Source of the DNA: an uncultured virus (IMG/VR IMGVR_UViG_3300025174_000013)
Taxonomy: Duplodnaviria; Heunggongvirae; Uroviricota; Caudoviricetes
DNA: 20,000 bases
IMG/VR virus record: IMGVR_UViG_3300025174_000013
Location: 55,145 to 75,144 of that record
Direction: 5' to 3' (one strand)
Part shown: positions 2,876-17,612 of the stretch, piece after piece
Position numbering within the stretch: the first letter of the stretch is position 1
Layout of the letters: each line of letters opens with the position of its first letter
Made by a program: the position numbers and the translations under genes
Notes under the pieces: model-generated
Told to the model about the DNA's origin: nothing
Database searches by the model: none
Seen by the model: the letters and a program-made list of their open reading frames with translations, nothing else

Positions 2876-2907
2876 TCATTTATATTATGTAATTAGTAAC
2901 TACTTAT

Positions 2908-3036
2908 GATACATATTCCCAAGACAAGCGACCATCATATCGTTTTGTAACTTGGGGTAATATGTATTTGACCACGGACAACGGTTTAGGGAATTTTTCC
3001 GTGATTTCATTGTCAGATAGGTGCCTCTGTCCGTGG
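2908..3036 (+). ncRNA. Candidate structured ncRNA (long hairpin plus multibranch domain)
   Basis: ATACATATT 2909-17/AATATGTAT 2959-67, CCCAAG/CTTGGG; CCACGGACA 2972-80/TGTCCGTGG 3028-36; TTTATATT at 2879. Confidence 0.55.
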
Positions 3037-3079
3037 AGCCCTATCAATTTATATTAAGGCTTAACATAAATGTGGTAAT

Positions 3080-4063
3080 ATGATTCAAGGATTTGTAAAG
3101 CTTTACAGGGAAAAAGGACTAAATGTAATACCACTTAAACCAAAGTCTAAATTTCCAGATGAAACAAACATGCCAATAAATCCACAAACTGGTAAGCGTG
3201 GTTGGAAAATATATCAAACTGAAAAGTGTAATATAGAAATTAAAGAAGGGCAAAATGGAGCAGTGCTTTGTGGTGAATCATCGGGTAATTTAGTGGTTAT
3301 AGACCTTGATGATCGTGAGTTATCAAAAGTTTTTGATGACTGGGAAAAAAGAAAAAATGAAACATTAATAGTTGAAACTGGAAAAGGATATCACGTATGT
3401 GTTAAACCAAAAGGAAAGTTGCCAGAAAAAAGCTTAAGATTAATAAATGATAAAGGTCAACGTATAGACATTCAATCACAAGGAACTTACGTATTAATTC
3501 CGGGTTCAATTAATCCAGAGACTGGTAAAGAATATAAAATAATTTCAAGTACATTGGATATACAGGATATAGACTTGGATGGTTTCATTAATAGTTTATC
3601 GAATCATGGGTTCAATCCAGAACGTATAAAGAAAGGAGTTGTTGAAATTTTAAAAGGTGTAAAAGAAGGAGAAAGAGATTATAGTGTATACACGCTTGGG
3701 GTAGCGATGAGACATAGTTTTGGTTTAAAAGATGCTGGATTATTATCATATCTAAATCATTTTAATCAAACATCGGTATTTCCCCCACTGCCAGATGTAG
3801 TGATAAAACAAAAAGTTCAAAGTGTGATGAACGCCGATGTTGAGAAAATTAGATTTAAAGAATTTTTAGAGAAATTTGATTTAAAAGAAGTAAAATTGAA
3901 ATATGACGATAATTTTTGGAAAGATGTAGAAGATTTACGTATACACAATAAACTTCAATCTAAAGATTTAAAACTTGAATGTGTAATTTGTAAAAAATTG
4001 GTAGCATATAATCCACAAGATACTACACATAGGGGGCACATCATTACAATTATATACAAGTAA
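3080..4063 (+). CDS. Bifunctional DNA primase-polymerase (prim-pol, AEP superfamily) with PriCT-like domain
   Basis: VIPL..KSKFP N-terminus, VVIDLD, ETGKGYHV, GTYVLIPGS; GERD...N...PPLP PriCT-like segment; C-terminal CxxC...HxxH. Confidence 0.85.
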   Translation: MIQGFVKLYREKGLNVIPLKPKSKFPDETNMPINPQTGKRGWKIYQTEKCNIEIKEGQNGAVLCGESSGNLVVIDLDDRELSKVFDDWEKRKNETLIVETGKGYHVCVKPKGKLPEKSLRLINDKGQRIDIQSQGTYVLIPGSINPETGKEYKIISSTLDIQDIDLDGFINSLSNHGFNPERIKKGVVEILKGVKEGERDYSVYTLGVAMRHSFGLKDAGLLSYLNHFNQTSVFPPLPDVVIKQKVQSVMNADVEKIRFKEFLEKFDLKEVKLKYDDNFWKDVEDLRIHNKLQSKDLKLECVICKKLVAYNPQDTTHRGHIITIIYK

Positions 4064-4076
4064 TACATTATACTAT

Positions 4077-4217
4077 GTAGGACTTTCAAGGGGTTTCAAT
4101 ATGAGGGCTAATAACCCAATGACCTGATAAAGCTGAAGTCGTGGTGGCTTTATCAAACGTGTAGTGGTGATGAAGGTATTAGATTGTTCGATAAACTGAG
4201 CCACTTTAAGAACACGC
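4077..4217 (+). ncRNA. Candidate structured ncRNA with kink-turn
   Basis: GGGTT/AACCC; TGATAAAGC 4125-33/GCTTTATCA 4147-55; AGTGGT-GAT-GA-AG...CT-GA-GCCACT k-turn 4163-4205; CGTGT/ACACG; TATA at ~4049. Confidence 0.6.
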
Positions 4218-4271
4218 AATTTAAATAGAACCACTGTATAGTAATTATGTGAAAAGTATGAGTCATACATA

Positions 4272-4454
4272 ATGCCTTATACAAGAGTACCATATACCGA
4301 CACTCGTAAAAAGCGACAAATTTTACGATATCGCCGATATGTGCGAAGAAAAGCACGAGGACATAGCCACCAAATATATGAAATAAAGAACACAAAAGGG
4401 CTAATCGTGAGCAGATGTAGAATCTGCAAATTTCATTTTTTTAAATTTATATAA
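4272..4454 (+). CDS. Arg/Lys-rich small protein, possible Zn-binding (HxH...CxxC)
   Basis: 60-aa ORF, highly basic. Confidence 0.5.
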   Translation: MPYTRVPYTDTRKKRQILRYRRYVRRKARGHSHQIYEIKNTKGLIVSRCRICKFHFFKFI

Positions 4455-4476
4455 GGATGATATGTTATAGGATAGT

Positions 4477-4725
4477 ATGGCAAATAGAGGAACCAAAAAG
4501 AGCAAACTATCTGAAAACCCTGAAAATTGGACTGGTAAGGAATTTAGAAAGTTCTTAGATAAATCACTTGATAAATTAGATGACGAAGCGTCAGTATCAG
4601 TAAATAGAGGAACAGGGCAAATAAAAGTAAAAGACTTGAAAAAGAAAAAAGGCACTGACAGAAAGAAAGCCTCAAAAGGCAGATATGTTTCTACTGGAAG
4701 AGGAACTGGGCGAAGAAAGCTTTAA
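4477..4725 (+). CDS. Highly basic small protein (possible nucleic-acid binding)
   Basis: K/R/G-rich 82 aa; TTTATATA at 4446. Confidence 0.7.
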   Translation: MANRGTKKSKLSENPENWTGKEFRKFLDKSLDKLDDEASVSVNRGTGQIKVKDLKKKKGTDRKKASKGRYVSTGRGTGRRKL

Positions 4726-4758
4726 AAAGTTATATACTAATTACATCCATTAATTATT

Positions 4759-5013
4759 ATGGCATTTCACTCAGAAAGAGCAAAAGCAGGAACTCGAAAG
4801 CAAATAGACTTACAGATTAAGACTATTAAGGCTAATATAGCAAGTTTAGAGAAAGAACATGTAAAAACTGAAAAATATTTAGGAAAAGGTCTTAATGATG
4901 CATTCATTAACAAAGCATTAAAAAACATTAATGCTACTATTGCACTAAAAGAGAAACAACTTGCAGATTACGAAGCAACACGAGCAAAATACGAAAAAGA
5001 CGGACTAATTTAA
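4759..5013 (+). CDS. Small coiled-coil protein
   Basis: Heptad-like helical pattern; TATA at ~4729; T-tract after the stop. Confidence 0.7.
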   Translation: MAFHSERAKAGTRKQIDLQIKTIKANIASLEKEHVKTEKYLGKGLNDAFINKALKNINATIALKEKQLADYEATRAKYEKDGLI

Positions 5014-5014
5014 G

Positions 5015-5036
5015 TCTTCTTTTTATTTTTATTTTT
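5015..5036 (+). terminator. Archaeal oligo-T terminator
   Basis: TCTTCTTTTTATTTTTATTTTT directly after stop codon. Confidence 0.5.
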
Positions 5037-5147
5037 ATAAGCAACCTCATGTAATGTAAATTGTGAGAGAGTCAGAGAACGACTGCGTGTCAAATGCGGT
5101 GTCCTTATCCGAAGAAAATTTATTAGGCTCTGCAACATTATATAATA

Positions 5148-5234
5148 GATGTGGTAGTGTGAATTTGCATACTTGGATGACAAATAAAACCTTAACATAG
5201 ACAAGAGGACTGGAGTAATTACCCAGCCACATCT
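5148..5234 (+). ncRNA. Degenerate tRNA-like cloverleaf RNA
   Basis: Acceptor GATGTGG/CCACATC, TA linker, D stem GTGT/GCAT, anticodon stem CTTG/CAAG around a 24-nt loop, AGGA variable region, T arm CTGG/CCAG with non-canonical loop; TTTATTAG at 5119. Confidence 0.55.
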
Positions 5235-5244
5235 ATCATATCAA

Positions 5245-5273
5245 ACAAGCATTTATATACCCCATAGTATATA
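5245..5273 (+). promoter_or_regulatory. Conserved promoter/operator, copy 2
   Basis: ACAAGCATTTATATACCCCATAGTATATA; TTTATATA at 5252, ATG at 5282. Confidence 0.8.
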
Positions 5274-5281
5274 AGATAATT

Positions 5282-5746
5282 ATGAAAACAAAAAGTAATC
5301 GACCTGAAGTTCAAAAAGGTTTACAAATTTGTTTTAAAATCACCAATATGGTAAAAGAACAATTTCCTAACGAAGTATTTGCAATCAAACAAAATTCTAT
5401 TGTACCTTTTACTTCCAATAAAAGACTTTGTAATAATACTTCTTTGGGTGGTTCATTTGCTCATTTTCACAATACTAAACCTCACAGAGTTTGTTGTAAA
5501 CAAAACTTTCTTATTAATGGTAGAAATTGGCATAGTGAATACGAATTTGGTAGGCAAAAAAGAGGAACTGGATATTATGTAAATGGAACACTTGGCTACG
5601 TGTTGTTAATAGTTCATGAATTAGCACATCATAGAACAAAGGGACATGGGAAGAAATGGGTTATTAAATGTAAGAAATTTCAAAACTTTATGATAAATCA
5701 ATTAATCAGTGGTGAATATTATAAGTATATATTACCTATTCATTAA
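5282..5746 (+). CDS. SprT/YgjP-like zinc metalloprotease
   Basis: VHELAHHRTKGHGKKW matches HExxH...HG..W minigluzincin pattern. Confidence 0.7.
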   Translation: MKTKSNRPEVQKGLQICFKITNMVKEQFPNEVFAIKQNSIVPFTSNKRLCNNTSLGGSFAHFHNTKPHRVCCKQNFLINGRNWHSEYEFGRQKRGTGYYVNGTLGYVLLIVHELAHHRTKGHGKKWVIKCKKFQNFMINQLISGEYYKYILPIH

Positions 5747-5755
5747 CTTATTATA

Positions 5756-5878
5756 ATGAATGGAAAGCCGAAGGAAGAAAAAATCGACTTAAAGGTTACA
5801 CTTTTATTGGGTATTATACTAGGAGCGGTAGTATATGGAAGTATCAAAGTCGTCCAAATGGGAGGTCTTCATCCATGA
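5756..5878 (+). CDS. 40-aa single-TM microprotein
   Basis: MNGKPKEEKIDLKVTLLLGIILGAVVYGSIKVVQMGGLHP; ATGA overlap with next gene. Confidence 0.6.
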   Translation: MNGKPKEEKIDLKVTLLLGIILGAVVYGSIKVVQMGGLHP

Positions 5879-6189
5879 CTGAAACATTATATAAAGGATT
5901 GGTTGGAAATGCCAAATCGATAATGGCTCATTTACCAAAAGAGAATTGGTTTCATACATATGCATTGTGGTTAGCAAATGAAACTAAACCATTTACAAAA
6001 GAAGAATGCAAAAAAGCACAAAAAATAGCAGATGAAATGTCTCATTGGGTTAATTGTCAACATCATTCAGGTGGTTCTCATATGGTTTTACTTCAATATA
6101 CTTTGGATTATCTTGGTGCTCGTACTATGTCTGAAGTAGAATTGGCTTATATGAGAGAAAACAAGGAGTTTGGTAAAAAAGATGATTGA
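5875..6189 (+). CDS. Hypothetical protein
   Basis: 104-aa ORF with GGAGGT RBS. Confidence 0.7.
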   Translation: MTETLYKGLVGNAKSIMAHLPKENWFHTYALWLANETKPFTKEECKKAQKIADEMSHWVNCQHHSGGSHMVLLQYTLDYLGARTMSEVELAYMRENKEFGKKDD

Positions 6190-6496
6190 TTTTAACACAA
6201 TAATAAGAAACCCAACACCTGACAACGCATTTAGTTTATGGAATTTTATGGTTCCTAATGAAGTTAAAGGCATTATGCCAGATGTATTAAGTGGAATAAA
6301 TTCTGGAGAAGATACCACACAGTTAGCAAATCAAACAGTTTTCAAAATAATAGATGTGGTAGAAGAAAGAGTATTAAAAGAAGGAGTGGATCATGTATTT
6401 CAAAACGGAATAGCAGATAGAATAATGGACATGATGACTGGGCAATATATGGTTAGTATATTCGAAAGAGTCGCAAATATGCTTGTTGGAGCATAA
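6182..6496 (+). CDS. Hypothetical protein
   Basis: In-frame ATG 6182 overlapping upstream gene end. Confidence 0.65.
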   Translation: MIDFNTIIRNPTPDNAFSLWNFMVPNEVKGIMPDVLSGINSGEDTTQLANQTVFKIIDVVEERVLKEGVDHVFQNGIADRIMDMMTGQYMVSIFERVANMLVGA

Positions 6497-6553
6497 TCAG
6501 GCACGGCTAAGCGTGAGTTTAAGTTTAAATACTACATTCAAGAAGTCAAGTCT

Positions 6554-6733
6554 ATGGTAAGCAAATCATGGTTAGTCACCGTAACACCATTAGTCATAGC
6601 TGTAGTAACATTCCTAAAATCGTTTGTCTATGGTACAGATCTGACTGAATCAGAACTTGAATTAATCAAGCTAGCTGTTGGTGCATTTGTAGGTTCAGGT
6701 GCAATAGGAGCCTATTTGTCTGCAAGGGCATAA
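6554..6733 (+). CDS. 59-aa two-helix membrane protein
   Basis: MVSKSWLVTVTPLVIAVVTFLKSFVYGTDLTESELELIKLAVGAFVGSGAIGAYLSARA; TTTAAATA at 6524; T-tract ~6756-6771. Confidence 0.7.
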   Translation: MVSKSWLVTVTPLVIAVVTFLKSFVYGTDLTESELELIKLAVGAFVGSGAIGAYLSARA

Positions 6734-6812
6734 GTAAAGAGTAGGTAATACTCTAATTTTTTCTTTTTTTTATTATCATTATGTTTATAAAGGAGTAAAT
6801 ATAATTTATTTT

Positions 6813-6878
6813 TGGTGATAAGGTAGGATATTCGCTGATAGGGCGTAAGTACCATCCGTCTATTCTACTATATCACCA
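6813..6878 (+). ncRNA. Candidate small hairpin ncRNA
   Basis: TGGTGATA/TATCACCA (8 bp) plus GGTAGGATA/TATTCTACT (9 bp, 2 GU); TTTATAAA at 6784. Confidence 0.55.
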
Positions 6879-6914
6879 TATAAGTTAATATTATTGATTA
6901 GGCTAAACTAAGCA

Positions 6915-7037
6915 TTGGAAGATAGTGGCAAAAGAACAGATTATGATTTACCATGTAGGCTATGTAGAAAAGAAAAGGCATCAGCTCTTGGAGTAATTTG
7001 TGTTGATTGTTTAAAGAGATATGGTTTTATAAAGTGA
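6915..7037 (+). CDS. 40-aa Zn-finger microprotein (TTG start)
   Basis: CRLC...CVDC; TATA-like TTAATATT ~6884. Confidence 0.55.
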   Translation: MEDSGKRTDYDLPCRLCRKEKASALGVICVDCLKRYGFIK

Positions 7038-7073
7038 CAATACGGTTATATAGAGATTAATGGCAGATAAGGT

Positions 7074-7532
7074 ATGCCAGCTAATCAGATAATTCATGAT
7101 ATATGGATAGGTGATTTAGAGGACGCTCTAGTATGGGATGGTAACTTATTATGTGTTTTAGAAACTAGACCTGAAAGACTACCAGTAGATGCATTACATA
7201 TTCCTATTCTGGCATTAAGATTTGAAAAAACATTCATGAAAGATAAAGATGGAAATGATACCAATTACCAAATATCTGGATTTGTTGATAGAGCATTACC
7301 AGTACAATTAGACGCAGTTGCACATGTTATTCAAAACCATATAGACGCAAAAGAAAGGCTAATGGTTCATTGTGGGGCTGGGATGGAACGAAGTCCGTTA
7401 GCATTAACATGGTACTTACACACTAGAATGGGTCTTACATTAGAAGATGCATTTGCGTTAGTAAAGACAAAAAGACCACAAGCACAGAACAGATTAGAAT
7501 GGTTAAATATCAGCAATCCATTAAACAAGTAA
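7074..7532 (+). CDS. Dual-specificity protein phosphatase (CX5R)
   Basis: IWIGD N-terminus, VHCGAGMERS active-site loop, AFALVKTKRP. Confidence 0.9.
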   Translation: MPANQIIHDIWIGDLEDALVWDGNLLCVLETRPERLPVDALHIPILALRFEKTFMKDKDGNDTNYQISGFVDRALPVQLDAVAHVIQNHIDAKERLMVHCGAGMERSPLALTWYLHTRMGLTLEDAFALVKTKRPQAQNRLEWLNISNPLNK

Positions 7533-7807
7533 TGGGTAGTGAAGACTGGCGGGATTGGGAAATAGATGAATGGAACATTAGACCAAGATTCAAAGGAGAA
7601 GATTTAACTAAAAAACGACAACTAAAGAAAGCCGAAGAACTAACAAGGGACGATGTATTAGGAGCAAGACATCATATAAAAGAAGTCTATTGTAAAGTTT
7701 GTGAAAAAGAATGGAATCGTGGAGCAATAAATGTTTGTAATGAATGTATCGAATATTATTGCGATGAACACATAACTAGACATCCAAATTGTACTAATGG
7801 TCGATAA
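7532..7807 (+). CDS. Zn-finger protein (B-box/AN1-like)
   Basis: CKVC...CNEC...YCDEH...HPNC; TAATG overlap gives start at 7532. Confidence 0.65.
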   Translation: MGSEDWRDWEIDEWNIRPRFKGEDLTKKRQLKKAEELTRDDVLGARHHIKEVYCKVCEKEWNRGAINVCNECIEYYCDEHITRHPNCTNGR

Positions 7808-7810
7808 AAA

Positions 7811-7921
7811 TTGAAATGTTGTAATAGATTTTGCAATGAAAAAGCAACCAATAGGGTTGGTTTAGGTGGTTTGTTTCATTATGTATGTTTTGATCATGCC
7901 ATGGATTCTACATTTGACTAA
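7811..7921 (+). CDS. 36-aa Cys/His microprotein (TTG start)
   Basis: KCCNRFCNEKA...VCFDH. Confidence 0.5.
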   Translation: MKCCNRFCNEKATNRVGLGGLFHYVCFDHAMDSTFD

Positions 7922-7953
7922 TTAGTTAAATACTACTTCATTATAACTACTTT

Positions 7954-8178
7954 ATGGCAACTGTATTTATAATTGATGGAAAACCACAAATGAAACAGCG
8001 ATTACCATATATTCCACGAGAAGGTGAAGTAGTAGAAATTGTTTCACCCAATGAAATTGGTGTTTATGTGGTTGATTTGATTCAACATAGAATTGATCTG
8101 AAAAGTACTATAGGCGTTGTAGATACGATGGTTCACATTACTAAAACTGAAAAAAAGAAAACAAAAAAGAGTGATTAA
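7954..8178 (+). CDS. Hypothetical beta-rich small protein
   Basis: 74-aa ORF; GTTAAATA at 7925. Confidence 0.7.
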   Translation: MATVFIIDGKPQMKQRLPYIPREGEVVEIVSPNEIGVYVVDLIQHRIDLKSTIGVVDTMVHITKTEKKKTKKSD

Positions 8179-8535
8179 ATGGTTGGTTCCATTATTGGAA
8201 ACATAAAAAACTCTGTTTGTGGTTGGGATGGCAAAATTTTAGGTAAGGGTTCATCTAAACAAGGACATTCTCACAAAGAACTTATGAAGTGTTTATACAA
8301 AAGTAATATGGAACTAAGTAAATCTATGCAAATATCTAGAAAGTTAGAAGAAGAGGTAAAAGCACTTCAAGAACAACTTGCCCATTATATTATCAAAGAA
8401 CAAAAGGAAAAAGAAAATACAGGATTAATGGATGTAAAAGAAGTAATAAATGTAGATGATAGTAAAACTGAGGCAAAAGACCTTTTAGAAGCAGAATCAA
8501 TAATAGATGAATCACTTGGAAACAATACCGCATAA
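8179..8535 (+). CDS. Hypothetical coiled-coil protein
   Basis: 118-aa ORF abutting previous stop. Confidence 0.7.
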   Translation: MVGSIIGNIKNSVCGWDGKILGKGSSKQGHSHKELMKCLYKSNMELSKSMQISRKLEEEVKALQEQLAHYIIKEQKEKENTGLMDVKEVINVDDSKTEAKDLLEAESIIDESLGNNTA

Positions 8536-8755
8536 GTATTTGATATCGAAAGGAATATCTTTTCCTATTTTAGAGGAAGGAGATCCAGTACCAGTAATAC
8601 AATTAGAATGTTATGAATACATAATAAAAGAAGGTGAAGATGGATGGTACTCAGCAGAATGTGAAGAATTACATGCCATAACTCAAGGAAAAACATGGGA
8701 CGAAATAAAGAATAATATACTAGAAGTTCATTCCTTAATGTTAGAGGCACAATGA
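8507..8755 (+). CDS. HicB-like antitoxin N-terminal domain (orphan)
   Basis: EDGWYSAECEELHAITQGKTWDEIKNNILE matches the HicB partial RNase H fold pattern; real start may be TTG 8540. Confidence 0.7.
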   Translation: MNHLETIPHKYLISKGISFPILEEGDPVPVIQLECYEYIIKEGEDGWYSAECEELHAITQGKTWDEIKNNILEVHSLMLEAQ

Positions 8756-9033
8756 TATTAAACCACGAAAAAAATACAGATCCCACTCTTTATGAAGCAA
8801 GAGTAGGTTGTATGAATTGTGATGCAGTTAAAGTAATGGGAATAAAAAAAGGTAAGTCAGTTGATGACTGGTTAAAAACAGAAAAAATTAAATGTCCTTC
8901 ATGCGAGTGTCTAGAAACACTCCAGTCATGGAAACAATATCTGGCAGGAAGAGCAATGATAACACAAATTGTAAAAATGTCTGAAAAAGAAGAAGATATT
9001 GAAGGAAAAGGAAGGTTAGGTCACTTTGGCTGA
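8752..9033 (+). CDS. Zn-ribbon protein
   Basis: CMNC...CPSC. Confidence 0.7.
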   Translation: MILNHEKNTDPTLYEARVGCMNCDAVKVMGIKKGKSVDDWLKTEKIKCPSCECLETLQSWKQYLAGRAMITQIVKMSEKEEDIEGKGRLGHFG

Positions 9034-9160
9034 GAGATGCCCACAATGTGGTAAAAAAATGTGGAATATGCAAACTTGTCATTTGTTTTGTGGAAATTGT
9101 GGTGCTCATTTAGATTGTGCTGATAAAGGATGTTCTAATAATCCCGAATCAACATGGTAG
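9026..9160 (+). CDS. 44-aa archaeal Zn-finger microprotein (resembles HVO_2523-type CPxCG family)
   Basis: CPQCG...TCHLFCGNCGAHLDCADKG; TTG start; family resemblance from recall only. Confidence 0.65.
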   Translation: MAERCPQCGKKMWNMQTCHLFCGNCGAHLDCADKGCSNNPESTW

Positions 9161-9216
9161 ATATAAATCTTTTTCATCAAATTAATCTTTAAATGTTATT
9201 AGTGTTATACACTTTT

Positions 9217-9330
9217 ATGATTACTAATCATTGTAACAATGATATGCATAATCTTTGTAATAAACCAGTAAGCTGTGAATGTAAATGCCATAAAAATAGA
9301 TGGGGTACATATCGTGTAGGTGGTGGTTAA
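9217..9330 (+). CDS. 37-aa Cys/His microprotein
   Basis: HC....H..C.....CECKCH. Confidence 0.55.
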   Translation: MITNHCNNDMHNLCNKPVSCECKCHKNRWGTYRVGGG

Positions 9331-9452
9331 TGATGAATAACGAACTTCCTAAAGGTGGTGGTATATGTTTTATATGTAATGAACCATGCTTACCACTTCA
9401 TTATACACACCCGCAGTGCAGAATAGATTTTCAAAAAATTGAAAAAAGATGA
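9330..9452 (+). CDS. 40-aa Zn-finger microprotein
   Basis: CFIC...HPQC; TAATG overlap. Confidence 0.55.
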   Translation: MMNNELPKGGGICFICNEPCLPLHYTHPQCRIDFQKIEKR

Positions 9453-9458
9453 TTAGCT

Positions 9459-9554
9459 TTGACTAAGTATTGTGCAGAATGTGGAAAAGAAACAAATATT
9501 ACCTATAAGAATATATGTTTGTCTTGTCAAATGAAAGTGAACAAAGATGGTTAA
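9459..9554 (+). CDS. 31-aa Zn-finger microprotein (TTG start)
   Basis: CAECG...CLSC. Confidence 0.5.
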   Translation: MTKYCAECGKETNITYKNICLSCQMKVNKDG

Positions 9555-10011
9555 ACAAACGTTTTCTATATTTAAAGAGAAGTTTACACAAACAGATTTG
9601 GATAGAATAGATCCAAGAATAAAAAAATATCTCGATGGATGGAAATTAGTTGAACTTTATAAAGGAAAAGTAGTAACTCTTCCACCTGATTGGAATTCTG
9701 AGATATTTCCATACAAATATTGTGAAGTCTATAAGGATGCAAACAGTCCAAATCCCGGCGAAGAAGAGAACGAAATTCAATTATATTTATCATGTGGATG
9801 GCGTGGATATGACGATGAAGTTGTAATTGTTTTAATGATTGTAGGAACTAATGTATTAAATGGTACAGATAAGGTAAGTGCAGAAATACATAAAATGAGT
9901 GGTGCATCTATGAAATTATATAAGAATAATAAACTAATCACTGACTTTACAAAACAAAGCTTTTGGCGAAAAGAATCATTGGATAAGGTTTGGATTGAAC
10001 GCTTGGACTAG
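9547..10011 (+). CDS. Hypothetical protein
   Basis: 154-aa ORF in overlapping gene chain. Confidence 0.7.
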   Translation: MVKQTFSIFKEKFTQTDLDRIDPRIKKYLDGWKLVELYKGKVVTLPPDWNSEIFPYKYCEVYKDANSPNPGEEENEIQLYLSCGWRGYDDEVVIVLMIVGTNVLNGTDKVSAEIHKMSGASMKLYKNNKLITDFTKQSFWRKESLDKVWIERLD

Positions 10012-10264
10012 CTTTTGGAACTGGTACGAAAATAAGGTACTTGGTTCAGTAATTATTATTGCAATTATTCAAATAATTCAAATCCCACACATGATTTGGA
10101 ATCTTGACCTTTATCTACAATGGGGACAAATTTCTAGAGTAAATCCTGTATTAGATTGGCTCTTATACGGTGTGGATTTGATTGAAATAGTATCAATTAT
10201 TCAAGTATCATTTATATTATACTCAATGATTAGAAAGAGGTTGAAGAGAAAATGCCAAAAATAA
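9995..10264 (+). CDS. Small two-TM membrane protein
   Basis: Two hydrophobic segments and basic C-terminus. Confidence 0.65.
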   Translation: MNAWTSFWNWYENKVLGSVIIIAIIQIIQIPHMIWNLDLYLQWGQISRVNPVLDWLLYGVDLIEIVSIIQVSFILYSMIRKRLKRKCQK

Positions 10265-10896
10265 TAATTAAGGTAAAGGAAGAGTATTTAGTATTAGTTC
10301 CAAGACCAACAAAAGAAGAACGTATGGCATTAAAAGAAGATATAATGCTACGCGGACAACATGATCCAATAGTAATTAATAGAGATGGATTCATATTAGA
10401 TGGATATACAAGATATGAAATTTGTCAAGAACTTGGAATAGAAGTTAAATATAGAATACAAGAATTTGCAACAAAAGAAGAGGAAAAAAGATATGTAATA
10501 AACTGCAATGTAAGAAGAAGACATCTGAATGCATTTCAACGAGTAGGATTAATGTACGACATGTATGTTATGGAAAAAGCACTTGCATTAAAAAGACATT
10601 ATGGTAATAAAGATTATAACGGCATAAAAAGAGGAAATGTAGGTGACATAGTAGGAAAAACGATAGGAGTAAATGGTATGACAGTATCAAAATCAGTATA
10701 CATAATGGAACATGCAAGTACTGAAATACAGGATAAGGTAAAAAATGGGAAAATAAGTATAGAAAAAGCCTATCTTGATTTAAAAAACCTCAGTCATGCA
10801 AGAATACTTCGTAAAAGCTATATCAAGAATGAAACAAAGTTAATATGTCCTCATTGTCAACAAATATCAAAGAAAAAAGAGTGGAAAATAGCATGA
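10252..10896 (+). CDS. ParB/Srx-like N-terminal domain protein with HTH-like region and C-terminal CxxC
   Basis: LKEDIMLRGQHDPIVIN...ILDGYTRYEIC.ELG, NVRRRHLN. Confidence 0.8.
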   Translation: MPKIIIKVKEEYLVLVPRPTKEERMALKEDIMLRGQHDPIVINRDGFILDGYTRYEICQELGIEVKYRIQEFATKEEEKRYVINCNVRRRHLNAFQRVGLMYDMYVMEKALALKRHYGNKDYNGIKRGNVGDIVGKTIGVNGMTVSKSVYIMEHASTEIQDKVKNGKISIEKAYLDLKNLSHARILRKSYIKNETKLICPHCQQISKKKEWKIA

Positions 10897-11135
10897 CTGA
10901 ACAAACAAAACTAGACTTGCGTGGGCTTTTTGTGCCAGAGACTTTGTTTAAAATAGAAATAGAAATGAGTAAAATGGAAGACGGTGATACTGTATTAATA
11001 CTAACAGATGACCTTAACTCGGAAGAATGGGTAATAAGATGGGCTCACAAAAATGGTCATGAGTTAATAGCATCAGAGAAAGTTGCAACTGGATTAAACA
11101 TAACATTAAAGAAAGGTGGGTATTCTATACAATGA
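10893..11135 (+). CDS. TusA/SirA-like protein lacking the catalytic cysteine
   Basis: LDLRGLFVPET vs family LDxxGLxCPxP; GDTVLILTDD, W..KNGHEL, ITLKK; ATGA overlap gives start 10893. Confidence 0.75.
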   Translation: MTEQTKLDLRGLFVPETLFKIEIEMSKMEDGDTVLILTDDLNSEEWVIRWAHKNGHELIASEKVATGLNITLKKGGYSIQ

Positions 11136-11290
11136 AATGCTGGTTTTGTGTAAAAGAAAGGCATAAGGATTGTATGAGAATTATTCCAGAAAGTGCAATA
11201 CAGATAAAAGGAATTAAGGAGGATTGTTCATTCGATGTTGTTAATATACCTTGTGAGTGTTTTGAATCAGACAGAAAATTACATGAATAA
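11132..11290 (+). CDS. 52-aa Cys/His microprotein
   Basis: CWFC....H..C...CEC...H; ATGA overlap. Confidence 0.6.
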   Translation: MKCWFCVKERHKDCMRIIPESAIQIKGIKEDCSFDVVNIPCECFESDRKLHE

Positions 11291-11306
11291 TTGTTATTTT
11301 GTACAA

Positions 11307-11335
11307 ACAAGGGTTTATATACCCTATAGTATATA
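11307..11335 (+). promoter_or_regulatory. Conserved promoter/operator, copy 3
   Basis: ACAAGGGTTTATATACCCTATAGTATATA; TTTATATA at 11314, ATG at 11344. Confidence 0.8.
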
Positions 11336-11343
11336 GGTATAAT

Positions 11344-11478
11344 ATGAATCAAAAAGAAGCACAAGATTTGATCAAGGAATTGCGAGAGATTGGAGCCATT
11401 GTTGATTTTAGACCAGCACGGGCAAAAGAACGACTTGATCAAGTGATTGCAACTTTACGGAATGGGATAACTTCATGA
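11344..11478 (+). CDS. 44-aa helical microprotein coupled to the helicase
   Basis: MNQKEAQDLIKELREIGAIVDFRPARAKERLDQVIATLRNGITS; leaderless start, ATGA overlap. Confidence 0.7.
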   Translation: MNQKEAQDLIKELREIGAIVDFRPARAKERLDQVIATLRNGITS

Positions 11479-12635
11479 GTGTTAATCTTCGTGACTATCA
11501 AACTGATGCAAAAGACAAGTTCTTTAATGCTAACAAACGGGGGACATTTTTATTCGCAACAGGAACGGGCAAAACCGAAATAGCAATAGGAATCATGGAA
11601 CAATACTTACAAGAACGAAAAGAAGTTAAAATCTTGTTTCTTGCTCCTAGAATAACATTAGTAGAACAAACCACTGAACGAATAAGGGGTTATGGTTTAA
11701 TTGCTGGCTCATATTATTCACTTGAAAAGGAATTAGAGCAACCAATAATTGTTTCAACTTATCAAAGCATTAGTAATGAATTACATCTTATCAATGAGTT
11801 TGACTTTATTGTTTTTGATGAAGTACATTTGGCTTCTGATTATGCTGAGAAATTCAGTGAAATAATGAAAGTTGCTGATGATCAAGGCTTGCATATGTTA
11901 TGTTTAACCGCTACTTTGGATAAATTCAATTATGAACGATTTGGTACAATTCTACGAACTTGTCCAGTATTAGGCGAAATAGATTTGAATGATGCCATTA
12001 ACAATGATTATCTTTCTCCAGTCGTAGTTGAAGATCATAGCGTCAATCTTTCACCTGAAAGTCAAAGACTTTACAATGAATACAGTAATGCAATTAAAAA
12101 TTTAAGTGATGCATTAGGTACATCAAATCCGCGAGATATACAACGAATGCTTGGACGGGTAAGAGAAGCAGGAATGTGGTTTAAAACAGTTCAAGCAAGA
12201 AAGCTTCTTATGGAATATAATCATGAAAAAGCAGATAAAGTATTAGAATTAGTAAAAACCTTCAATGGTGAACAAACCATAATATTTTGTGAAAGAACAA
12301 AGACATTAGAATTACTCAAGGAAAAAATGGGTGATTGTTTTGAATTCATTACAGCAAAAACGGGGAAGAAAAAGAGAAGAGAAATACTTGAAAACTTTGG
12401 TAAAACATTTCATGTAATTGGCACAGTTCACACATTAGACTTAGGTTATGATGTACCAAACATACGACACGGAATCATAGTGGCTAGCAATAAGAATGAA
12501 ACTACCATAGTTCAGCGTATCGGGCGTGTGGTTAGAAAAGCAGAAGGTAAGACTTTATCAAAAATTTATGTCATTTACGCAAAAGGAACACACGAACAAG
12601 GCTTATTCCAAAAAATCAAAGACGCGGTAAAATAG
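11475..12635 (+). CDS. Superfamily 2 helicase (XPB/Rad25-like)
   Basis: LRDYQ Q-motif, ATGTGKT, DEVH, TAT, LGYDVP, QRIGRVVR. Confidence 0.92.
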   Translation: MSVNLRDYQTDAKDKFFNANKRGTFLFATGTGKTEIAIGIMEQYLQERKEVKILFLAPRITLVEQTTERIRGYGLIAGSYYSLEKELEQPIIVSTYQSISNELHLINEFDFIVFDEVHLASDYAEKFSEIMKVADDQGLHMLCLTATLDKFNYERFGTILRTCPVLGEIDLNDAINNDYLSPVVVEDHSVNLSPESQRLYNEYSNAIKNLSDALGTSNPRDIQRMLGRVREAGMWFKTVQARKLLMEYNHEKADKVLELVKTFNGEQTIIFCERTKTLELLKEKMGDCFEFITAKTGKKKRREILENFGKTFHVIGTVHTLDLGYDVPNIRHGIIVASNKNETTIVQRIGRVVRKAEGKTLSKIYVIYAKGTHEQGLFQKIKDAVK

Positions 12636-12667
12636 TTTATATTACGGCAAAAACCTATAATAGTGAT

Positions 12668-12892
12668 ATGACAGAAAAACACTACGTAGTAAAATGTATA
12701 CATGACGAAGATGATAAAGAATGTCTTCATAAAGAAGTATGTGCTATCCATTGCCACAATAATAAAAAGGAAAATTGTTACAAACACTGTAATAAAACAT
12801 GGGCATGTGAGACAGAAGCTCAAGCCCAAGTATTGAAGCAAACACATATAGCAAACGAAACACTGCACAAACCATACATAAAGAAGATGTGA
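12668..12892 (+). CDS. Cys/His-rich small protein
   Basis: 74 aa with multiple C/H pairs; TATA-like ~12636. Confidence 0.6.
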   Translation: MTEKHYVVKCIHDEDDKECLHKEVCAIHCHNNKKENCYKHCNKTWACETEAQAQVLKQTHIANETLHKPYIKKM

Positions 12893-13356
12893 TGGAAACA
12901 TTCAGTAGAGATTTAATCGGCGGAAAGGAAATAGAAAAAACAGTATTAAACATAGTTAAAAAAACATATCCAGATGCACACACGGTAGATGGTTATTGTA
13001 AAGATTGGGACATATACATTCCATCATTAAAAAAAGGAATAGAAGTAAAGTCTGATCAATATTCACAAAAAAGTGGGAATATTGTAGTTGAAGAATCATT
13101 CAATGGAAAACCAAGTGCTTTATCTACAACAAAAGCATCATTATGGGTTTTTCATACTGGCAACAAAATAATTCAAATAACTCCAGATTTATTGAGAATA
13201 ATAATAGCGGAGAACAATTTAAAAACAGTTCAATTTATAGCAAAAGGGGATACACAACCAAAAAAGGCATATTTCGTAAAACAATATCTAATAGAACCCC
13301 GTGCTTTAGCCGTGAATGACGTAAATGACCATGATATAACAATACGAATGGTTTAA
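12889..13356 (+). CDS. PD-(D/E)XK family nuclease-like protein
   Basis: GKEIE...WDIY...IEVKSD, SGNIVVE. Confidence 0.7.
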   Translation: MMETFSRDLIGGKEIEKTVLNIVKKTYPDAHTVDGYCKDWDIYIPSLKKGIEVKSDQYSQKSGNIVVEESFNGKPSALSTTKASLWVFHTGNKIIQITPDLLRIIIAENNLKTVQFIAKGDTQPKKAYFVKQYLIEPRALAVNDVNDHDITIRMV

Positions 13357-13384
13357 ATTACCCTGTTAATCACATAACGATAAC

Positions 13385-13558
13385 ATGGCAACAAATGGTA
13401 ACAACAATACTGAACTAGCCCTAATAGGTTCAACAACCGCTTTAGGATTAGCTGGATTGGCTACAGGAGTAGTAAGCGATGCTAATACATTGTTTGTACT
13501 CATTGGAGCACAACTAGTAGCATTTGGCTTTGTAATAGGTAAGAAACTATTCGGCTAA
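13385..13558 (+). CDS. 57-aa two-helix membrane protein
   Basis: MATNGNNNTELALIGSTTALGLAGLATGVVSDANTLFVLIGAQLVAFGFVIGKKLFG; TTTAAATT at 13352; T-tract after stop. Confidence 0.7.
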   Translation: MATNGNNNTELALIGSTTALGLAGLATGVVSDANTLFVLIGAQLVAFGFVIGKKLFG

Positions 13559-13583
13559 ATCTTTCTCTTTTTTTTCAAGAATC

Positions 13584-13697
13584 ATGCCTCAGAAAAAGCT
13601 CGATTTTTCATCCACTAGAATTTATATATTAGTTGCACTATTAGTACAACCAATCGAAATAGTTATATTACACATTATGTATATAATATATCGATAG
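13584..13697 (+). CDS. Possible 37-aa hydrophobic microprotein
   Basis: MPQKKLDFSSTRIYILVALLVQPIEIVILHIMYIIYR; no clear promoter or RBS. Confidence 0.3.
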   Translation: MPQKKLDFSSTRIYILVALLVQPIEIVILHIMYIIYR

Positions 13698-13803
13698 TGA
13701 GTAATTCCATAGACTCTTACTTCAACTATGAATCGGAGCATCGCCAAAAAGCCGAAAGAGTTGGCAAAGGATTTATCCCAATGAGAGGAATGGGTTCACT
13801 ATT
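13693..13803 (+). ncRNA. Candidate multibranch ncRNA
   Basis: GATAGTGAGT/GTTCACTATT closing stem, ATAG/CTAT and GCCAA/TTGGC arms; TTATATTA at 13663. Confidence 0.55.
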
Positions 13804-13809
13804 AGACAC

Positions 13810-13889
13810 TTCTTTATATAATCACCAATGAAGTACAAGTCAGTTCTTTATATAATTAAAAAATATCAATACATGGTTCTTTATATAAT
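13810..13889 (+). repeat. Three exact 13-bp direct repeats TTCTTTATATAAT
   Basis: Copies at 13810, 13844, 13877 (period 34/33). Confidence 0.9.
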
Positions 13890-14055
13890 GAGTCGCGAAA
13901 TGTGCAAAATGGCGACTTATTAGGCATGATAGGATGCCATATGGCAAAACTATGGTATATATACTAAGTAACCATAAATGGAAATATTATCAATTAACAA
14001 GCCTTTATATACTTGGTATCCGTAAATAGACTAAATACTCTTTAAAGTGTAACAT

Positions 14056-14214
14056 ATGATTACGAGAGTATGCCCAATTTGCGGGGGAATAGTGGAAATA
14101 ACACTAGAGCAACTATACATAAGGAAGAGTTTTCAAGGTAATAAGAAGGAATTCATTGAAAGAGAACTAAGGCTATGCATAAGATGTAAATGGTATAGAT
14201 TCAGTGCTCGTTAA
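14056..14214 (+). CDS. 52-aa Zn-ribbon microprotein
   Basis: CPICGG...CIRCKW. Confidence 0.6.
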   Translation: MITRVCPICGGIVEITLEQLYIRKSFQGNKKEFIERELRLCIRCKWYRFSAR

Positions 14215-14246
14215 GAAGCAATAACTTTATAGGCTATAAGTTTATT

Positions 14247-14336
14247 GTTAATCGCATTAACAGTTAATGGAGTTAACAGTTAACAAGTGGTCAGCTTTCT
14301 TGATATTGGTCAGCTTATTCCGACCACATGTGGTCA
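14247..14336. repeat. Cluster of short direct and inverted repeats upstream of TerS
   Basis: TTAACAGTTAA x2, TGGTCAGCTT x2, palindrome GACCACATGTGGTC 14322-14335. Confidence 0.8.
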
Positions 14337-14465
14337 TAATTAGGCTGAGCTAATACTATACACCCTCCTATACAACTTTTGTGCCTAAAAGGTAATATAT
14401 GCTTATATGGTAACTAAATCATGCAATGCAGGCACGAGAATAATGCAAAATAAAGGGGATATACA

Positions 14466-14909
14466 ATGAGCGAAATACAAGAACCAATGGAGCTAACTAC
14501 CATAGATGTAGAAAACATGACTCCTAAAGAACAGGAGATATACCATAGAAGAATGCGTGTATTTGCTAATCTATTCGTACCGCCTGCAGTTAGGCTAACC
14601 CATGAAGCACTTGCCGAAAACGAAAAGGTAGAAAGGGATACTATAACAAGGGACATAAGGTGGATAAAGATAACATATCCAGATTTATGGTCAAATGAAC
14701 AAATAAAGCATGGATTTGCCTATAGTATGCTAAAAGTATCTAATATGTATGAAGTCATGATTAGGGAATTATACGATAGTTTTCAAGCCACAACTGATAT
14801 ATTCGAGAGAATAGCAATAGCTAAAGCGTTGAATGATTTAATGCCAACATACACCAATTCAAAGGCACATGGAGTAATCTTGGAAAAAATCAAAGGCACG
14901 GTGAAATGA
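14466..14909 (+). CDS. Probable terminase small subunit
   Basis: HTH-like LTHEALAENEKVERDTITRDI plus helical body; ATGA-coupled directly upstream of TerL. Confidence 0.65.
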   Translation: MSEIQEPMELTTIDVENMTPKEQEIYHRRMRVFANLFVPPAVRLTHEALAENEKVERDTITRDIRWIKITYPDLWSNEQIKHGFAYSMLKVSNMYEVMIRELYDSFQATTDIFERIAIAKALNDLMPTYTNSKAHGVILEKIKGTVK

Positions 14910-16744
14910 ATAAAAAATTCATAGATGATAAGTTTTACTCTGACTTTGAAAAAATAACATCTTCGGAAGTAGATTTACCAACATTACCAATGGATCCAAT
15001 GAAGTGGATAGAAGAAGCTAGACCATTTGTTGAAGGAAGACCACGTTCATTCCTAATAGCACCATTTTGGGATGACATTTACAGGGATAACAATACACAT
15101 AAGTTTATTATAGGTGGGCGACAAATATTCAAATCTACTTATACTACCGATATATTGGCACATGAAACAACAGCTTTTCCAAAGTCTCAAGTTTGTTACG
15201 TTACTTTTGATGATGTGAATAAGGCAGGATTTTCAAGGCAGAAATTACAATATGGTACATTTGAGCCAAATCCAATACTAAAACAATTTCCAAGGCATGA
15301 TTTGGGTAACGTGGGGGAAATTTCGCTAAAGAATGGTAGCACAATATACATTACTACAGATCATGGACAATACAGGCATGTAGAAGGTAAATCATTAGAT
15401 CATGTTATGTTAGATGAAGCACAATATCAAGATATACAATATTTTGACAAAGTAACATTAACAATGACACAAACCATGGGTAAGATTACAGTATTAGGAA
15501 TTGGTGGAGAAAGTGGATCACCTTATGAAGAATTATGGCGTAGAACAGATCAACGAAAATGGATATATGATGATCTTAATTGGCGTGAGAAATTGCAGTT
15601 TGGACTAGTTAAGAATCACAGAGGACAAGAAAAACATGGATTAATTATAGGCGAATACTTGAAAGAAGTATTGCGTGGACATTGGGAAGTAACAAATCCA
15701 CGAGCAACACATTGGCACGGATATTATTTACCACAACATATATTTCCATCTATTCCATTAACAATAGAATCAGCAATTAATGATTATGATGTAGATCCAA
15801 TTTACTCAATAGAATATAAGAGAAAACATATGAATAGAGCACTTTATACTTCTCACGTATTGGGATCATTCTACAAGGCACAAAGAAGACCAATTACAAA
15901 CGAAATGATAGAAGCATGTATGAAGAATTATTATTACATGAAATTATTGACTCCAGAGCAAATAGGAGATATTAAGGATACATATGGAGACAGAGTATTT
16001 ATTTCAATGGGAGTGGACTTTGGTTCTGGCAGTCCGTCACAAACTGTTATATCAATTTTAATTACATGGAAAATAAAAGAATCCGATAAATTGCAGACAA
16101 GTACACATAGAATTCAATTAGCTCTTCTTGAGCCAAGACCACAGGAAAATCAATTAGACCAAGCCGAATATATTAATTGGATGTTTAAAACGGCAAAATG
16201 TGATATAGGAATAGGAGATCTTGGTTATGGAGCTAATCAAGTAATGATCATACAGGAAGGTGGTTATAACAGACAAACAGGAGTTAAATTCGCGGGAGTA
16301 GGTGCAAATAAATTTTATGGTTCAAGAACTATAGGAGACGAAACAAAACCACTAATGGAATTCACTGAGAAACAGGACGAACATGGTAAACAAAATCCAC
16401 ACATTAAGTTAGACAAATCACAAATTATACAGGAATTCATAGACTTTATGGAAGAATACGTACCACATCCAGACAATCCATTTGTTGAGGATTATCAAAG
16501 ACTAAGGTTTATGATACCAAATCATCCAGACAGCAGATCACAAATAGATTTCATATTCCATGATTGGGTGCAATTAGTTAGAGTTGACTTGCCAGAAGAA
16601 TTAGAAAAAGAAGAAATTGACAAAAGAATTTTTGCTCGGAAACAATTTTCACATCCTAGCGATTCGTTAATCTCAGTTATTTATAGTTTGCAAGGATCGA
16701 AAATTAAACAAGGGTTTCATTGGGTAACTGTCGGCAACGATTAA
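14906..16744 (+). CDS. terL: Terminase large subunit
   Basis: Walker A variant GRQIFKST, Walker B VMLDE, nuclease MGVDFG, GDLGYG, C-terminal HPSDS. Confidence 0.88.
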   Translation: MNKKFIDDKFYSDFEKITSSEVDLPTLPMDPMKWIEEARPFVEGRPRSFLIAPFWDDIYRDNNTHKFIIGGRQIFKSTYTTDILAHETTAFPKSQVCYVTFDDVNKAGFSRQKLQYGTFEPNPILKQFPRHDLGNVGEISLKNGSTIYITTDHGQYRHVEGKSLDHVMLDEAQYQDIQYFDKVTLTMTQTMGKITVLGIGGESGSPYEELWRRTDQRKWIYDDLNWREKLQFGLVKNHRGQEKHGLIIGEYLKEVLRGHWEVTNPRATHWHGYYLPQHIFPSIPLTIESAINDYDVDPIYSIEYKRKHMNRALYTSHVLGSFYKAQRRPITNEMIEACMKNYYYMKLLTPEQIGDIKDTYGDRVFISMGVDFGSGSPSQTVISILITWKIKESDKLQTSTHRIQLALLEPRPQENQLDQAEYINWMFKTAKCDIGIGDLGYGANQVMIIQEGGYNRQTGVKFAGVGANKFYGSRTIGDETKPLMEFTEKQDEHGKQNPHIKLDKSQIIQEFIDFMEEYVPHPDNPFVEDYQRLRFMIPNHPDSRSQIDFIFHDWVQLVRVDLPEELEKEEIDKRIFARKQFSHPSDSLISVIYSLQGSKIKQGFHWVTVGND

Positions 16745-16775
16745 TTTATATTACCTACATTACTACATTATATTA

Positions 16776-16855
16776 GATTCAAGCCTTTTCCAAGCCGTTA
16801 AGGTAATCTGAATCCATCATTTAATCCATGGGCGAGCACCATGTAAAAAACGCTC
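16776..16855 (+). ncRNA. Candidate small structured RNA between terL and the TerL-fragment gene
   Basis: GATTCA/TGAATC plus CCTT/AAGG hairpin, then GAGC/GCTC hairpin; TTTATATT at 16745. Confidence 0.4.
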
Positions 16856-16957
16856 ACTAATATTTTAGTATCAAATTATCACAATAGTATATAAAGATCG
16901 GTGGTTTTATGATACTAAAGCATTAGTATATATTATCTATCCAACTCAATAAATGAA

Positions 16958-17484: not shown

Positions 17485-17612
17485 ATAAATGTAAATTTTG
17501 TGGAAGCTATGATGGTATGAGTATGCATAACAAACCATATGAATCAAGTGAGCCAGACTTTGGTTTTATTTGTAGAACATGTGGAAGAGTTTCACTAGAG
17601 GAGCCAGAATGA
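17481..17612 (+). CDS. 43-aa Zn-finger microprotein
   Basis: CKFCGS...CRTCG; ATGA overlaps at both ends. Confidence 0.65.
   Translation: MNKCKFCGSYDGMSMHNKPYESSEPDFGFICRTCGRVSLEEPE

Follow-up and report, generated by a model that had tools for sequence, protein, structure and literature searches.

The window, the whole stretch of 20,000 nt that was analysed, comprises bases 55145-75144 of the 75,144-base virus record IMGVR_UViG_3300025174_000013 and has a G+C content of 32%. It probably covers the replication and early genes of a head-tailed virus whose hosts are ammonia-oxidising archaea, which matter worldwide to the nitrogen cycle. Protein matches identify a PrimPol and a superfamily-2 helicase, and the large terminase (14906-16744) has distant matches to phage terminases. 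Further products are a methylase, a metalloprotease, a phosphatase, a TusA-like protein and many tiny zinc-ribbon open reading frames (ORFs). By a crude ORF call, 86/95 ORFs of the whole record lie on the + strand. The nearest PrimPol among species-representative genomes is 43% identical and was found in a 'Thaumarchaeota archaeon' metagenome-assembled genome (G001). Six TATA-like boxes of the window are followed by elements, E1 to E6, that the initial annotation read as a battery of independent small RNAs. Comparison with related viruses indicates that E2, E3, E4 and E5 are genuine conserved elements, and E3 is a putative viral member of a family of host small RNAs.

All six boxes are present where they had been placed (2879, 4049, 5119, 6784, 13663 and 16745). 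The elements also begin at the offset that had been claimed, as the distance from the first T of the box to the first base of E1-E6 is 29, 28, 29, 30, 30 and 31 nt, respectively. Leaderless genes do use a like offset, with 13 ATG starts of the window located 29-34 nt past the first T of a TATA-like box. In the whole record, a TATA-like hexamer precedes 23/86 + strand ORFs at positions -36 to -26, and other genes carry GGTGAT-type ribosome-binding sites in place of a leaderless promoter. Every element ends 2-19 nt ahead of the next TATA box. The first nucleotides were said to form a closing stem in five elements. Stems of at least 7 bp at offset 28-31 were found in E1, E3, E4 and E5; E2 has no such stem and E6 only a local 39-nt hairpin. 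In this AT-rich DNA a 7-bp closing stem arises by chance at 13% of positions and in 31% of 4-nt windows. The preference of G-U pairs for the + strand is real, but that strand is G-rich throughout (GC skew +0.04 to +0.38).

Each element was folded against 200 dinucleotide shuffles (Table 1). E1, E3 and E4 fold better than their shuffles, and E2, E5 and E6 do not. A sliding-window scan was also carried out on the + strand only, with 399 windows and 20 shuffles, and the only elements to stand out were E4, which has the lowest energy of all and ranks 8th by z, and E1. Many coding windows fold as well as these elements, which makes folding energy weak evidence. Because half of the set fails the folding test, the case must rest on comparison. 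In very AT-rich genomes folding z-scores can mislead, as E2 has the worst z-score and the best covariation.

Related viruses were sought by protein-guided and pattern scans, and two lineages were recovered in addition to lineage A, the window virus. Lineage B is represented by three contigs without differences in their overlaps; its PrimPol is 86% and its terminase 75% identical in amino acid sequence. Lineage C consists of two short contigs, L011 and L012, with an aligned PrimPol identity of 54-57%. Between lineages A and B, identity is 90.6, 93.6 and 77.8% at codon positions 1, 2 and 3, respectively. Plain spacer is 61% identical upstream of E5 and cannot be aligned upstream of E4. The elements are 85-97% identical, which is above third codon positions and the spacer upstream of E5. 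Among homologues, E2 has 7 double-sided pairs, E3 has 3 compensatory changes, E4 has 2 and E5 has 1, and none occurs in E1b, the second part of E1. Contigs of four DNA sequencing runs mapped on the window are lineage-B-like variants. Pattern scans of viral contigs with the cores of E4, E3 and E5 returned the same three contigs only, and a scan with E2 gave 5 more places, all of them chance matches within coding sequence. When covariance models of E2, E3 and E4 were run on 18-23 loci of distant PrimPol relatives, no match fell below E=0.77, and in the whole virus record they revealed no second copy. The gaps of distant relatives L052-L056, examined by reading, have no comparable layout.

E3 was aligned from three viral sequences. 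Of its 22 pairs, 97% of the cells are paired and 8/66 are G-U on the + strand, and the 7-bp closing stem contains all 3 compensatory changes. A covariance model built from these three sequences was searched against 151 genomes drawn from the class of G001. It matched 28/151 genomes, at one locus of 62-77 nt in each (E 6e-7 to 0.09 per genome). The same model matched 0/5 other archaeal genomes, and none of 18 other viral and genomic loci gave a match below E=1. Twenty host loci were fetched and all matched anew; one, L095, differs in appearance and is doubtful. The eight weaker host matches include four forms of 73-75 nt. BLAST with E3 found 16/401 genomes, mostly by a single 23-nt match. When six of the BLAST places were retested with the model, three 23-nt places (L124-L126) gave no match and L129 proved a true 77-nt member. 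The presence of E3 homologues in these genomes implies that the host of the virus lies within this archaeal class.

The host and viral forms share the closing stem, a first hairpin GUGUGAGUUUGCA and a 3' hairpin ACUGR..UAACUA..CAGC, with ACUGRNUUAACUA..CAGC common to the host loci and E3. The first hairpin (GUGUGAGUUUGCAYA) and the 3' hairpin before the closing stem are almost unchanged in sequence between E3 of all three viral lineages and 19/20 host loci, L095 being the exception. The central linker is 9-25 nt in the host and 35 nt in E3, where it holds an extra small hairpin; the 77-nt host form has a central hairpin and carries CUGGAGUAACUACCCAG. E3 is, to judge by these sequences, an enlarged variant of the host 62-77 nt RNA. 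In an alignment of 23 sequences, 12/22 pairs are altered on both sides, including 6/7 pairs of the closing stem. None of 500 shuffles did as well (0/500), and slid controls gave 2-3 such pairs.

The host loci have their own TATA box (CTCTATAAGCA, CTCTTTAAGCA or CTTTTAAT) about 27-28 nt before the closing stem; the E3 box lies 29 nt upstream. The promoter-to-stem spacing of the viral elements agrees with that of the host RNA gene. The neighbours of the host loci are varied and unrelated, and include an MFS transporter, a TFB, a histidine kinase and an isochorismatase. Rfam gave 0 matches up to E=1 on the host loci, and ARAGORN found 0 tRNAs in 8 of them even at a lowered threshold. These results suggest that E3 is an RNA gene of host type. 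Two further features were observed around the host loci. In many host genomes (L102-L111) a leaderless ORF of 32-36 amino acids (MLKKLFAKLQRNQKK...) and zinc-ribbon mini-proteins lie downstream, within about 55 nt, and the motif CCTAATTAAC recurs upstream of host RNA loci. Within E3 itself, the unpaired conserved stretch 5180-5191 has a 12-nt complement at 17562-17573, 6-17 nt before ORF 17579, at chance level (E=0.28).

In each of the three lineages, E2 occurs linked to PrimPol. In four aligned sequences, 99% of the 96 cells of its 24 pairs are paired, 7 pairs are altered on both sides, and 7/96 cells are G-U on the + strand. The covariation score was reached by 0/500 shuffles. Controls in which the partners were moved by 1-3 columns were 30-44% paired and had 0-1 double-sided pairs. 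The 3' domain has an outer stem CRUGU/ACAYG and a second stem GUGNN/NNCAC, followed by GAUGA opposite GA. Both motifs are invariant in 4/4 sequences and the flanking stem covaries (G-C to A-U, U-G to C-G). A second arrangement, AUGA-GGG...CCC-RAUGA, lies upstream within E2.

The 3' domain of E2 looks like kink-turns (K-turns). The protein L7Ae binds K-turn RNAs such as box C/D small RNAs (sRNAs). E2 resembles these in its covarying stem followed by GAU and in the GA facing GA, and the GUGAUGA...CUGA of lineage A is like C and D boxes. It differs from them in that lineage C lacks the D box, no C'/D' boxes are present, and the non-canonical stem needs an extra unpaired A. An assignment of E2 as a box C/D sRNA was considered and rejected. 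CUGA accompanies GUGAUGA in lineage A and GCGAUGA in lineage B; in lineage C, with ACGAUGA or AUGAUGA, GCGA stands where CUGA would be, and internal C'/D' boxes are missing. Moreover, only 24 nt separate GAUGA and CUGA in lineage A, which is insufficient room for two guides. The gene that follows E2, at 4272, is not leaderless. It has a TATA-like box at 4220 and a 52-nt leader with the hairpin GTATGAGTCATAC, and this leader (4220-4271) shares 98% identity with lineage B and 85% with lineage C.

In E4, 96% of cells are paired over 25 pairs; 2 changes are compensatory and three further changes turn G-U into G-C or A-U. The - strand of E4 folds worse than the + strand (-18.5 vs -24.1 kcal/mol). 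A zinc-ribbon ORF directly follows E4 in lineages A and B. In L012, E4 is followed by a run of six T (T6), tRNA-Asp, tRNA-Val and a LAGLIDADG-like ORF (L012 4826-5275), and only then by the zinc-ribbon ORF. Because of these inserts, E4 appears to be a separate module and not the leader of the zinc-ribbon ORF. E5 was compared with lineage B only. Identity between A and B is about 60-73% up to the closing stem, jumps to almost 100% exactly at its first base, and falls again past its last base. An inner stem changes from G-C to A-U around a loop of 17 vs 13 nt, and this length difference breaks the only long frame. Contigs in two DNA runs have joints (13542>13692 and 13802>14042) that coincide with the E5 borders; they are probably lineage B again. 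Downstream of E5, at 13803-14055, three promoter-like copies of TTCTTTATATAAT spaced 33-34 nt apart precede several short hairpins, and this region is mostly absent in lineage B.

E1 and E6 appear from the alignments to be composites of a lineage-variable 5' piece and a conserved hairpin. The first hairpin of E1 (E1a) did not hold as a conserved element since it is lineage-specific. E1b, which abuts the PrimPol promoter, has a z-score of only -1.22 and shows no compensatory change. The promoter of the leaderless PrimPol gene is a second box, TTTATATTA, at 3048. Two TTTATATTA boxes flank unrelated inserts in lineage A and L012, where the insert is about 150 nt, folded and unrelated; L011 has one box and no insert. 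These variable inserts between duplicated boxes make the slots look like sites of cassette exchange. E6 as drawn in the initial annotation (16776-16854) was not upheld, as the nearest relative has unrelated sequence there and the folding is no better than that of shuffles. Past it lies a 72-nt hairpin (16856-16927) in which two one-sided changes keep their pairs via G-U. Its - strand folds nearly as well (z -4.24). Lineage C contains extra folded non-coding inserts after orphan TATA boxes (L012 194-366, L012 1665-1720 and L011 151-272) that have no counterpart in the window; the one at L012 1665-1720 (z -3.12) precedes tRNA genes.

Table 1. Boxes, candidate RNA elements and two landmark genes of the window, with folding scores and identity to lineage B
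Feature	Position	Strand	z	Shuffles as good (of 200)	Identity to B (%)	Remarks
E1 TATA box TTTATATT	2879-2886	+				conserved in lineage B
E1, whole			-3.52	1		
E1a, 61-nt hairpin (E1 first hairpin)	2908-2968	+	-4.84	0		lineage-specific; different short sequence in lineage B
E1b, conserved block	2969-3046	+			97	97.4% identical to lineage B; abuts PrimPol promoter
PrimPol	3080-4063	+				protein match
E2 TATA box ATTATATA	4049-4056	+				overlaps PrimPol end; retained in lineages A, B and C
E2, structured RNA element (predicted)	4077-4216	+	-0.30	68		hairpins 4105-4117 and 4126-4154, plus 3' domain
E2 3' domain	outer stem 4158-4162/4212-4216; stem 4164-4168/4200-4204	+			92	comparative
K-turn-like motif in E2	4164-4204	+				stem GUGGU/GCCAC; GAUGA 4169-4173; GA 4198-4199
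E3 TATA-like box TTTATTAG	5119-5126	+				AAATTTATTAGGCTCTGC invariant in lineages A, B and C
E3, predicted 86-nt RNA	5148-5233	+	-2.58	1	88	7-bp closing stem and three hairpins; putative viral member of host small-RNA family
E4 TATA box TTTATAAA	6784-6791	+				TTTATAAAGGAGTAAAT conserved in lineages A, B and C
E4, 64-nt irregular hairpin	6814-6877	+	-4.10	0	95	GUAA tetraloop; 86% identical to lineage C
Superfamily-2 helicase	11475-12635					protein match
E5 TATA box TTATATTA	13663-13670	+				TTTATAAT at equal distance in lineage B, where the flank is only 61-73% identical
E5, 110-nt multi-stem element	13693-13802	+	-1.33	22	87	conserved block; variable internal loop; 32 pairs, 1 compensatory
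E6 TATA box TTTATATT	16745-16752	+				box kept in lineage B, following 80 nt not
E6 as proposed, variable segment	16776-16854	+	-1.59	15		unalignable to lineage B
72-nt hairpin past E6	16856-16927	+	-5.27	0	94	abuts promoter of ORF 16958

Taken together, these results are probably best explained if the gaps between short operons hold small RNA genes whose RNAs are stable and act in trans. Each gene would have its own TATA box and yield a folded RNA from the predicted +1, with the 5' and 3' ends paired in a closing stem and the leaderless promoter of the next gene close behind. The RNAs would be made from these promoters, would be stabilised by the pairing of their ends, and would act as parts or mimics of host ribonucleoprotein particles. 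As E3 keeps the two invariant loops of the host RNA, it would be expected to bind the same partner, and so either to stand in for the host RNA or to compete with it. The GAUGA/GA motifs of E2 would be the binding site of a K-turn protein, for example L7Ae. The battery proposed by the initial annotation thus survives in part. E2, E3, E4 and E5 behave as conserved, non-coding elements, structured on the + strand at the predicted +1 of a conserved TATA box, and E3 falls into a host-type RNA family with its own promoter; E6 as drawn and the first hairpin of E1 are lost from the set.

Several observations weigh against the small-RNA-gene explanation. Three of the six elements (E2, E5 and E6) do not beat their shuffles, and the 399-window scan has a mean z of -0.24 (sd 1.31) with several coding windows below -4. 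The alignments of E3 and E4 comprise only three distinct viral sequences each, and that of E5 only two. On viral sequences alone the covariation of E3 was matched by 19/500 shuffles, and that of E4 by 52/500. The 23-row alignment of E3 was fitted to the model structure and includes the doubtful row L095. The K-turn register of E2 requires one unpaired A for the next two pairs to covary. Against the 151 class genomes, the E2 and E4 models each gave 1 weak match at chance level (E=0.021 and E=0.096, respectively), and BLAST with E5 found 8/401 genomes by matches of 19-34 nt to differing parts, also at chance level. No RNA sequencing run was found to contain 2800-7100, and the promoters, +1 sites and 3' ends are predictions. 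Finally, no run of at least five T directly follows any of the six elements in lineage A, so that transcripts may continue into the next gene.

The main rival holds that the elements are cis-acting cassettes, in which an upstream promoter and a folded leader stand in tandem with the leaderless promoter of a gene. They would give a leadered second mRNA or interfere with the downstream promoter, and the repeated promoters would be recombination joints. We regard this as possible but rather unlikely. The closeness of every element to the next TATA box and the lack of a T-run terminator in lineage A are as it predicts, as are the two TTTATATTA boxes around unrelated inserts at the PrimPol slot of lineage A and L012 and the single box of L011. 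Breaks in similarity between lineages also coincide with these sites. The host homologues of E3 speak against it, since they stand alone with their own promoter among varied neighbour genes. In L012 the downstream gene is not the same: a T6 run follows each of E2 and E4, and next come tRNA genes or a separate small ORF. Furthermore, multi-stem structures with covarying closing stems exceed the needs of a leader hairpin.

A role at the DNA level is improbable. Inverted repeats by PrimPol and the helicase would then serve as origins, priming sites or operators, and E2 would be a stem-loop origin past the primase gene. E1 and E2 do flank PrimPol, E2 is linked to it in all lineages, and E1b and the hairpin at 16856-16927, with its well-folding - strand, touch promoters. 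The Sulfolobus plasmid pRN1 reportedly has a stem-loop origin downstream of its primase gene. Against this, many pairs of E2 and E3 are kept only as G-U on the + strand, in the fractions of cells given above, and such pairs become A-C mismatches on the other strand. The - strand of E4 folds worse, the GC skew is monotonic with no origin signal, and the E3 homologues are single promoter-bearing loci in host chromosomes, unlike a viral origin.

Slightly less probable again is a link to tRNA genes, of which the elements would be remnants or relatives; related viruses have real tRNAs in these slots. Lineage C encodes tRNAs for Thr, Cys, Arg (with an intron), Trp, Asp and Val at slots beside E1, E2 and E4 (L011 8-154 and 2396-2612; L012 1957-2029 and 4633-4783), and lineage B has a tRNA-Met on the - strand. 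E3 and the 73-77 nt host forms also have a 7-bp closing stem, three arms and a tRNA-like size. ARAGORN, however, found no tRNA in the window, in the whole virus record or in the 8 host loci. In the window, a search of Rfam release 15 up to E=10 gave 3 matches; none is a tRNA, and all score far short of the gathering threshold (best 18.2 vs 35.6 bits). The only one inside an element is DUF805b in E5 (E=0.55; below gathering). The tRNA mimics that had been suggested were thus found by neither program, and the loops lack T-loop and D-loop signatures. Antisense regulators, suggested alongside them, gained no support either, as targets in the virus are at chance level (matches of 11-12 nt, E 0.25-2).

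That the elements are functionless chance hairpins in AT-rich spacers beside real promoters is very improbable for the set and applies chiefly to E1a and E6, which are not conserved. The frequency of 7-bp closing stems and the shuffle results for E2, E5 and E6 would fit it. For E2-E5 the alignments indicate that it is already refuted, by 85-97% identity vs 61% in neighbouring spacer and 78% at third codon positions, and it leaves the compensatory changes and the host homologues of E3 unexplained. Least probable of all are very small proteins, since the frames concerned (a 44-amino acid GTG frame over E5 and - strand frames of 47-65 amino acids over E2, E3 and E4) are broken in relatives by start loss or indels of 1, 2 or 4 nt (start loss or 1-2 nt for E2, E3 and E4; a 4-nt length difference in lineage B for E5) and substitutions track base pairs, not codons. 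The statement that no convincing ORF follows the boxes is therefore mostly borne out. It fails for E1, where a leaderless mini-ORF at 2906 encodes 14 amino acids; its 16-amino acid counterpart at the same ATG in lineage B is unrelated.

The small-RNA-gene explanation can be extended, tentatively. Ammonia-oxidising archaea would own a conserved, promoter-driven RNA of cloverleaf size (62-77 nt), part of an unknown ribonucleoprotein particle, which the virus captured and enlarged as E3. Together with the PrimPol-linked K-turn RNA E2 and the other RNAs, it would take over or disarm the RNA-protein machinery of the host, and RNA and tRNA genes would be cassettes exchanged by recombination at duplicated TATA promoters. 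We consider this scenario as a whole unlikely, though worth stating. For four candidate viral RNA families and one candidate host RNA family, the analysis supplies coordinates and structures as well as predicted start sites. That a virus should copy a host small RNA points directly to a host function that it pays to attack or replace, and the copy makes the host RNA testable in cultured Nitrosopumilus. RNA-gene slots beside leaderless promoters appear to be sites of module exchange.

Similar arrangements are known in other viruses. The tRNA region of phage T4 encodes two small stable RNAs of unknown function, species 1 and 2, which are co-transcribed and processed with tRNAs. They too are virus-encoded small structured RNAs beside virus tRNA genes. 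T4 is a phage of bacteria, whereas the elements here each have their own archaeal TATA box in a record without tRNA, and there is no sequence relation. YrlA RNAs are Y RNA-like and tRNA-like small RNAs of bacteria and phages, and resemble the present ones as small RNAs of hosts and viruses with paired 5' and 3' ends and a multi-arm domain. The sequences are unrelated and no Rfam match was obtained, and we know of no Ro protein partner in these archaea. The PeSL cassettes of T4-type phages combine bacterial sigma-70 promoters with simple terminator hairpins. Like the elements of the window, they are dispersed intergenic units of promoter and hairpin at the borders of mosaic modules, with duplicated promoters flanking variable inserts. 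The elements here differ in being diverse multi-stem RNAs by prediction, four of them conserved in their own right.

Carriage of host-type small RNA genes by viruses is already known, from tRNAs and from phages; the viral RNA families and the host RNA appear to be new. To our knowledge, archaeal viruses have almost no described non-coding RNAs, and hardly any small RNAs are described for ammonia-oxidising archaea. The initial annotation knew of no such repertoire in these viruses, and literature searches of main texts agreed with it in giving no description in viruses or hosts. In the passages available from PMC9693318 and PMC5069720 such RNAs are not mentioned. Archaeal tailed viruses do encode tRNA genes, according to the available parts of two papers (PMC8651126, PMC13532342). 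Those genes and the present elements are alike in being host-type RNA genes in head-tailed viruses, and lineage C has six tRNAs in the same slots. E1-E6 differ in that they are not tRNAs, and E3 would copy another host RNA, one absent from Rfam.

A few observations were made outside the elements. ACATTAT occurs in the promoter spacers of E2, E3, E5 and E6, which hold 4 of its 29 occurrences in the virus record. It was rejected as a shared element motif because it is not retained in lineages B or C, and a 9-mer common to 2161-2359 and 5063-5118 was set aside as expected by chance. A longer promoter, ACAAGGGTTTATATACCCC.TAGTA, precedes three leaderless genes (2330, 5252 and 11314), and similar versions occur twice more in the record. 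The 107-amino acid ORF 16958-17281, downstream of the 72-nt hairpin, has a stretch that resembles part of the large terminase by protein and nucleotide match. This ORF is 99.7% identical between lineages A and B, vs 79% for the terminase itself. The spacer 14215-14465, before ORF 14466-14909 and the large terminase, contains GTTAAY repeats, TGGTCAGCTT twice and a palindrome, GACCACATGTGGTC. By folding energy, windows of this spacer take ranks 4, 7 and 9 among the 399, and only 73/251 nt align to lineage B. This spacer may be a packaging site.

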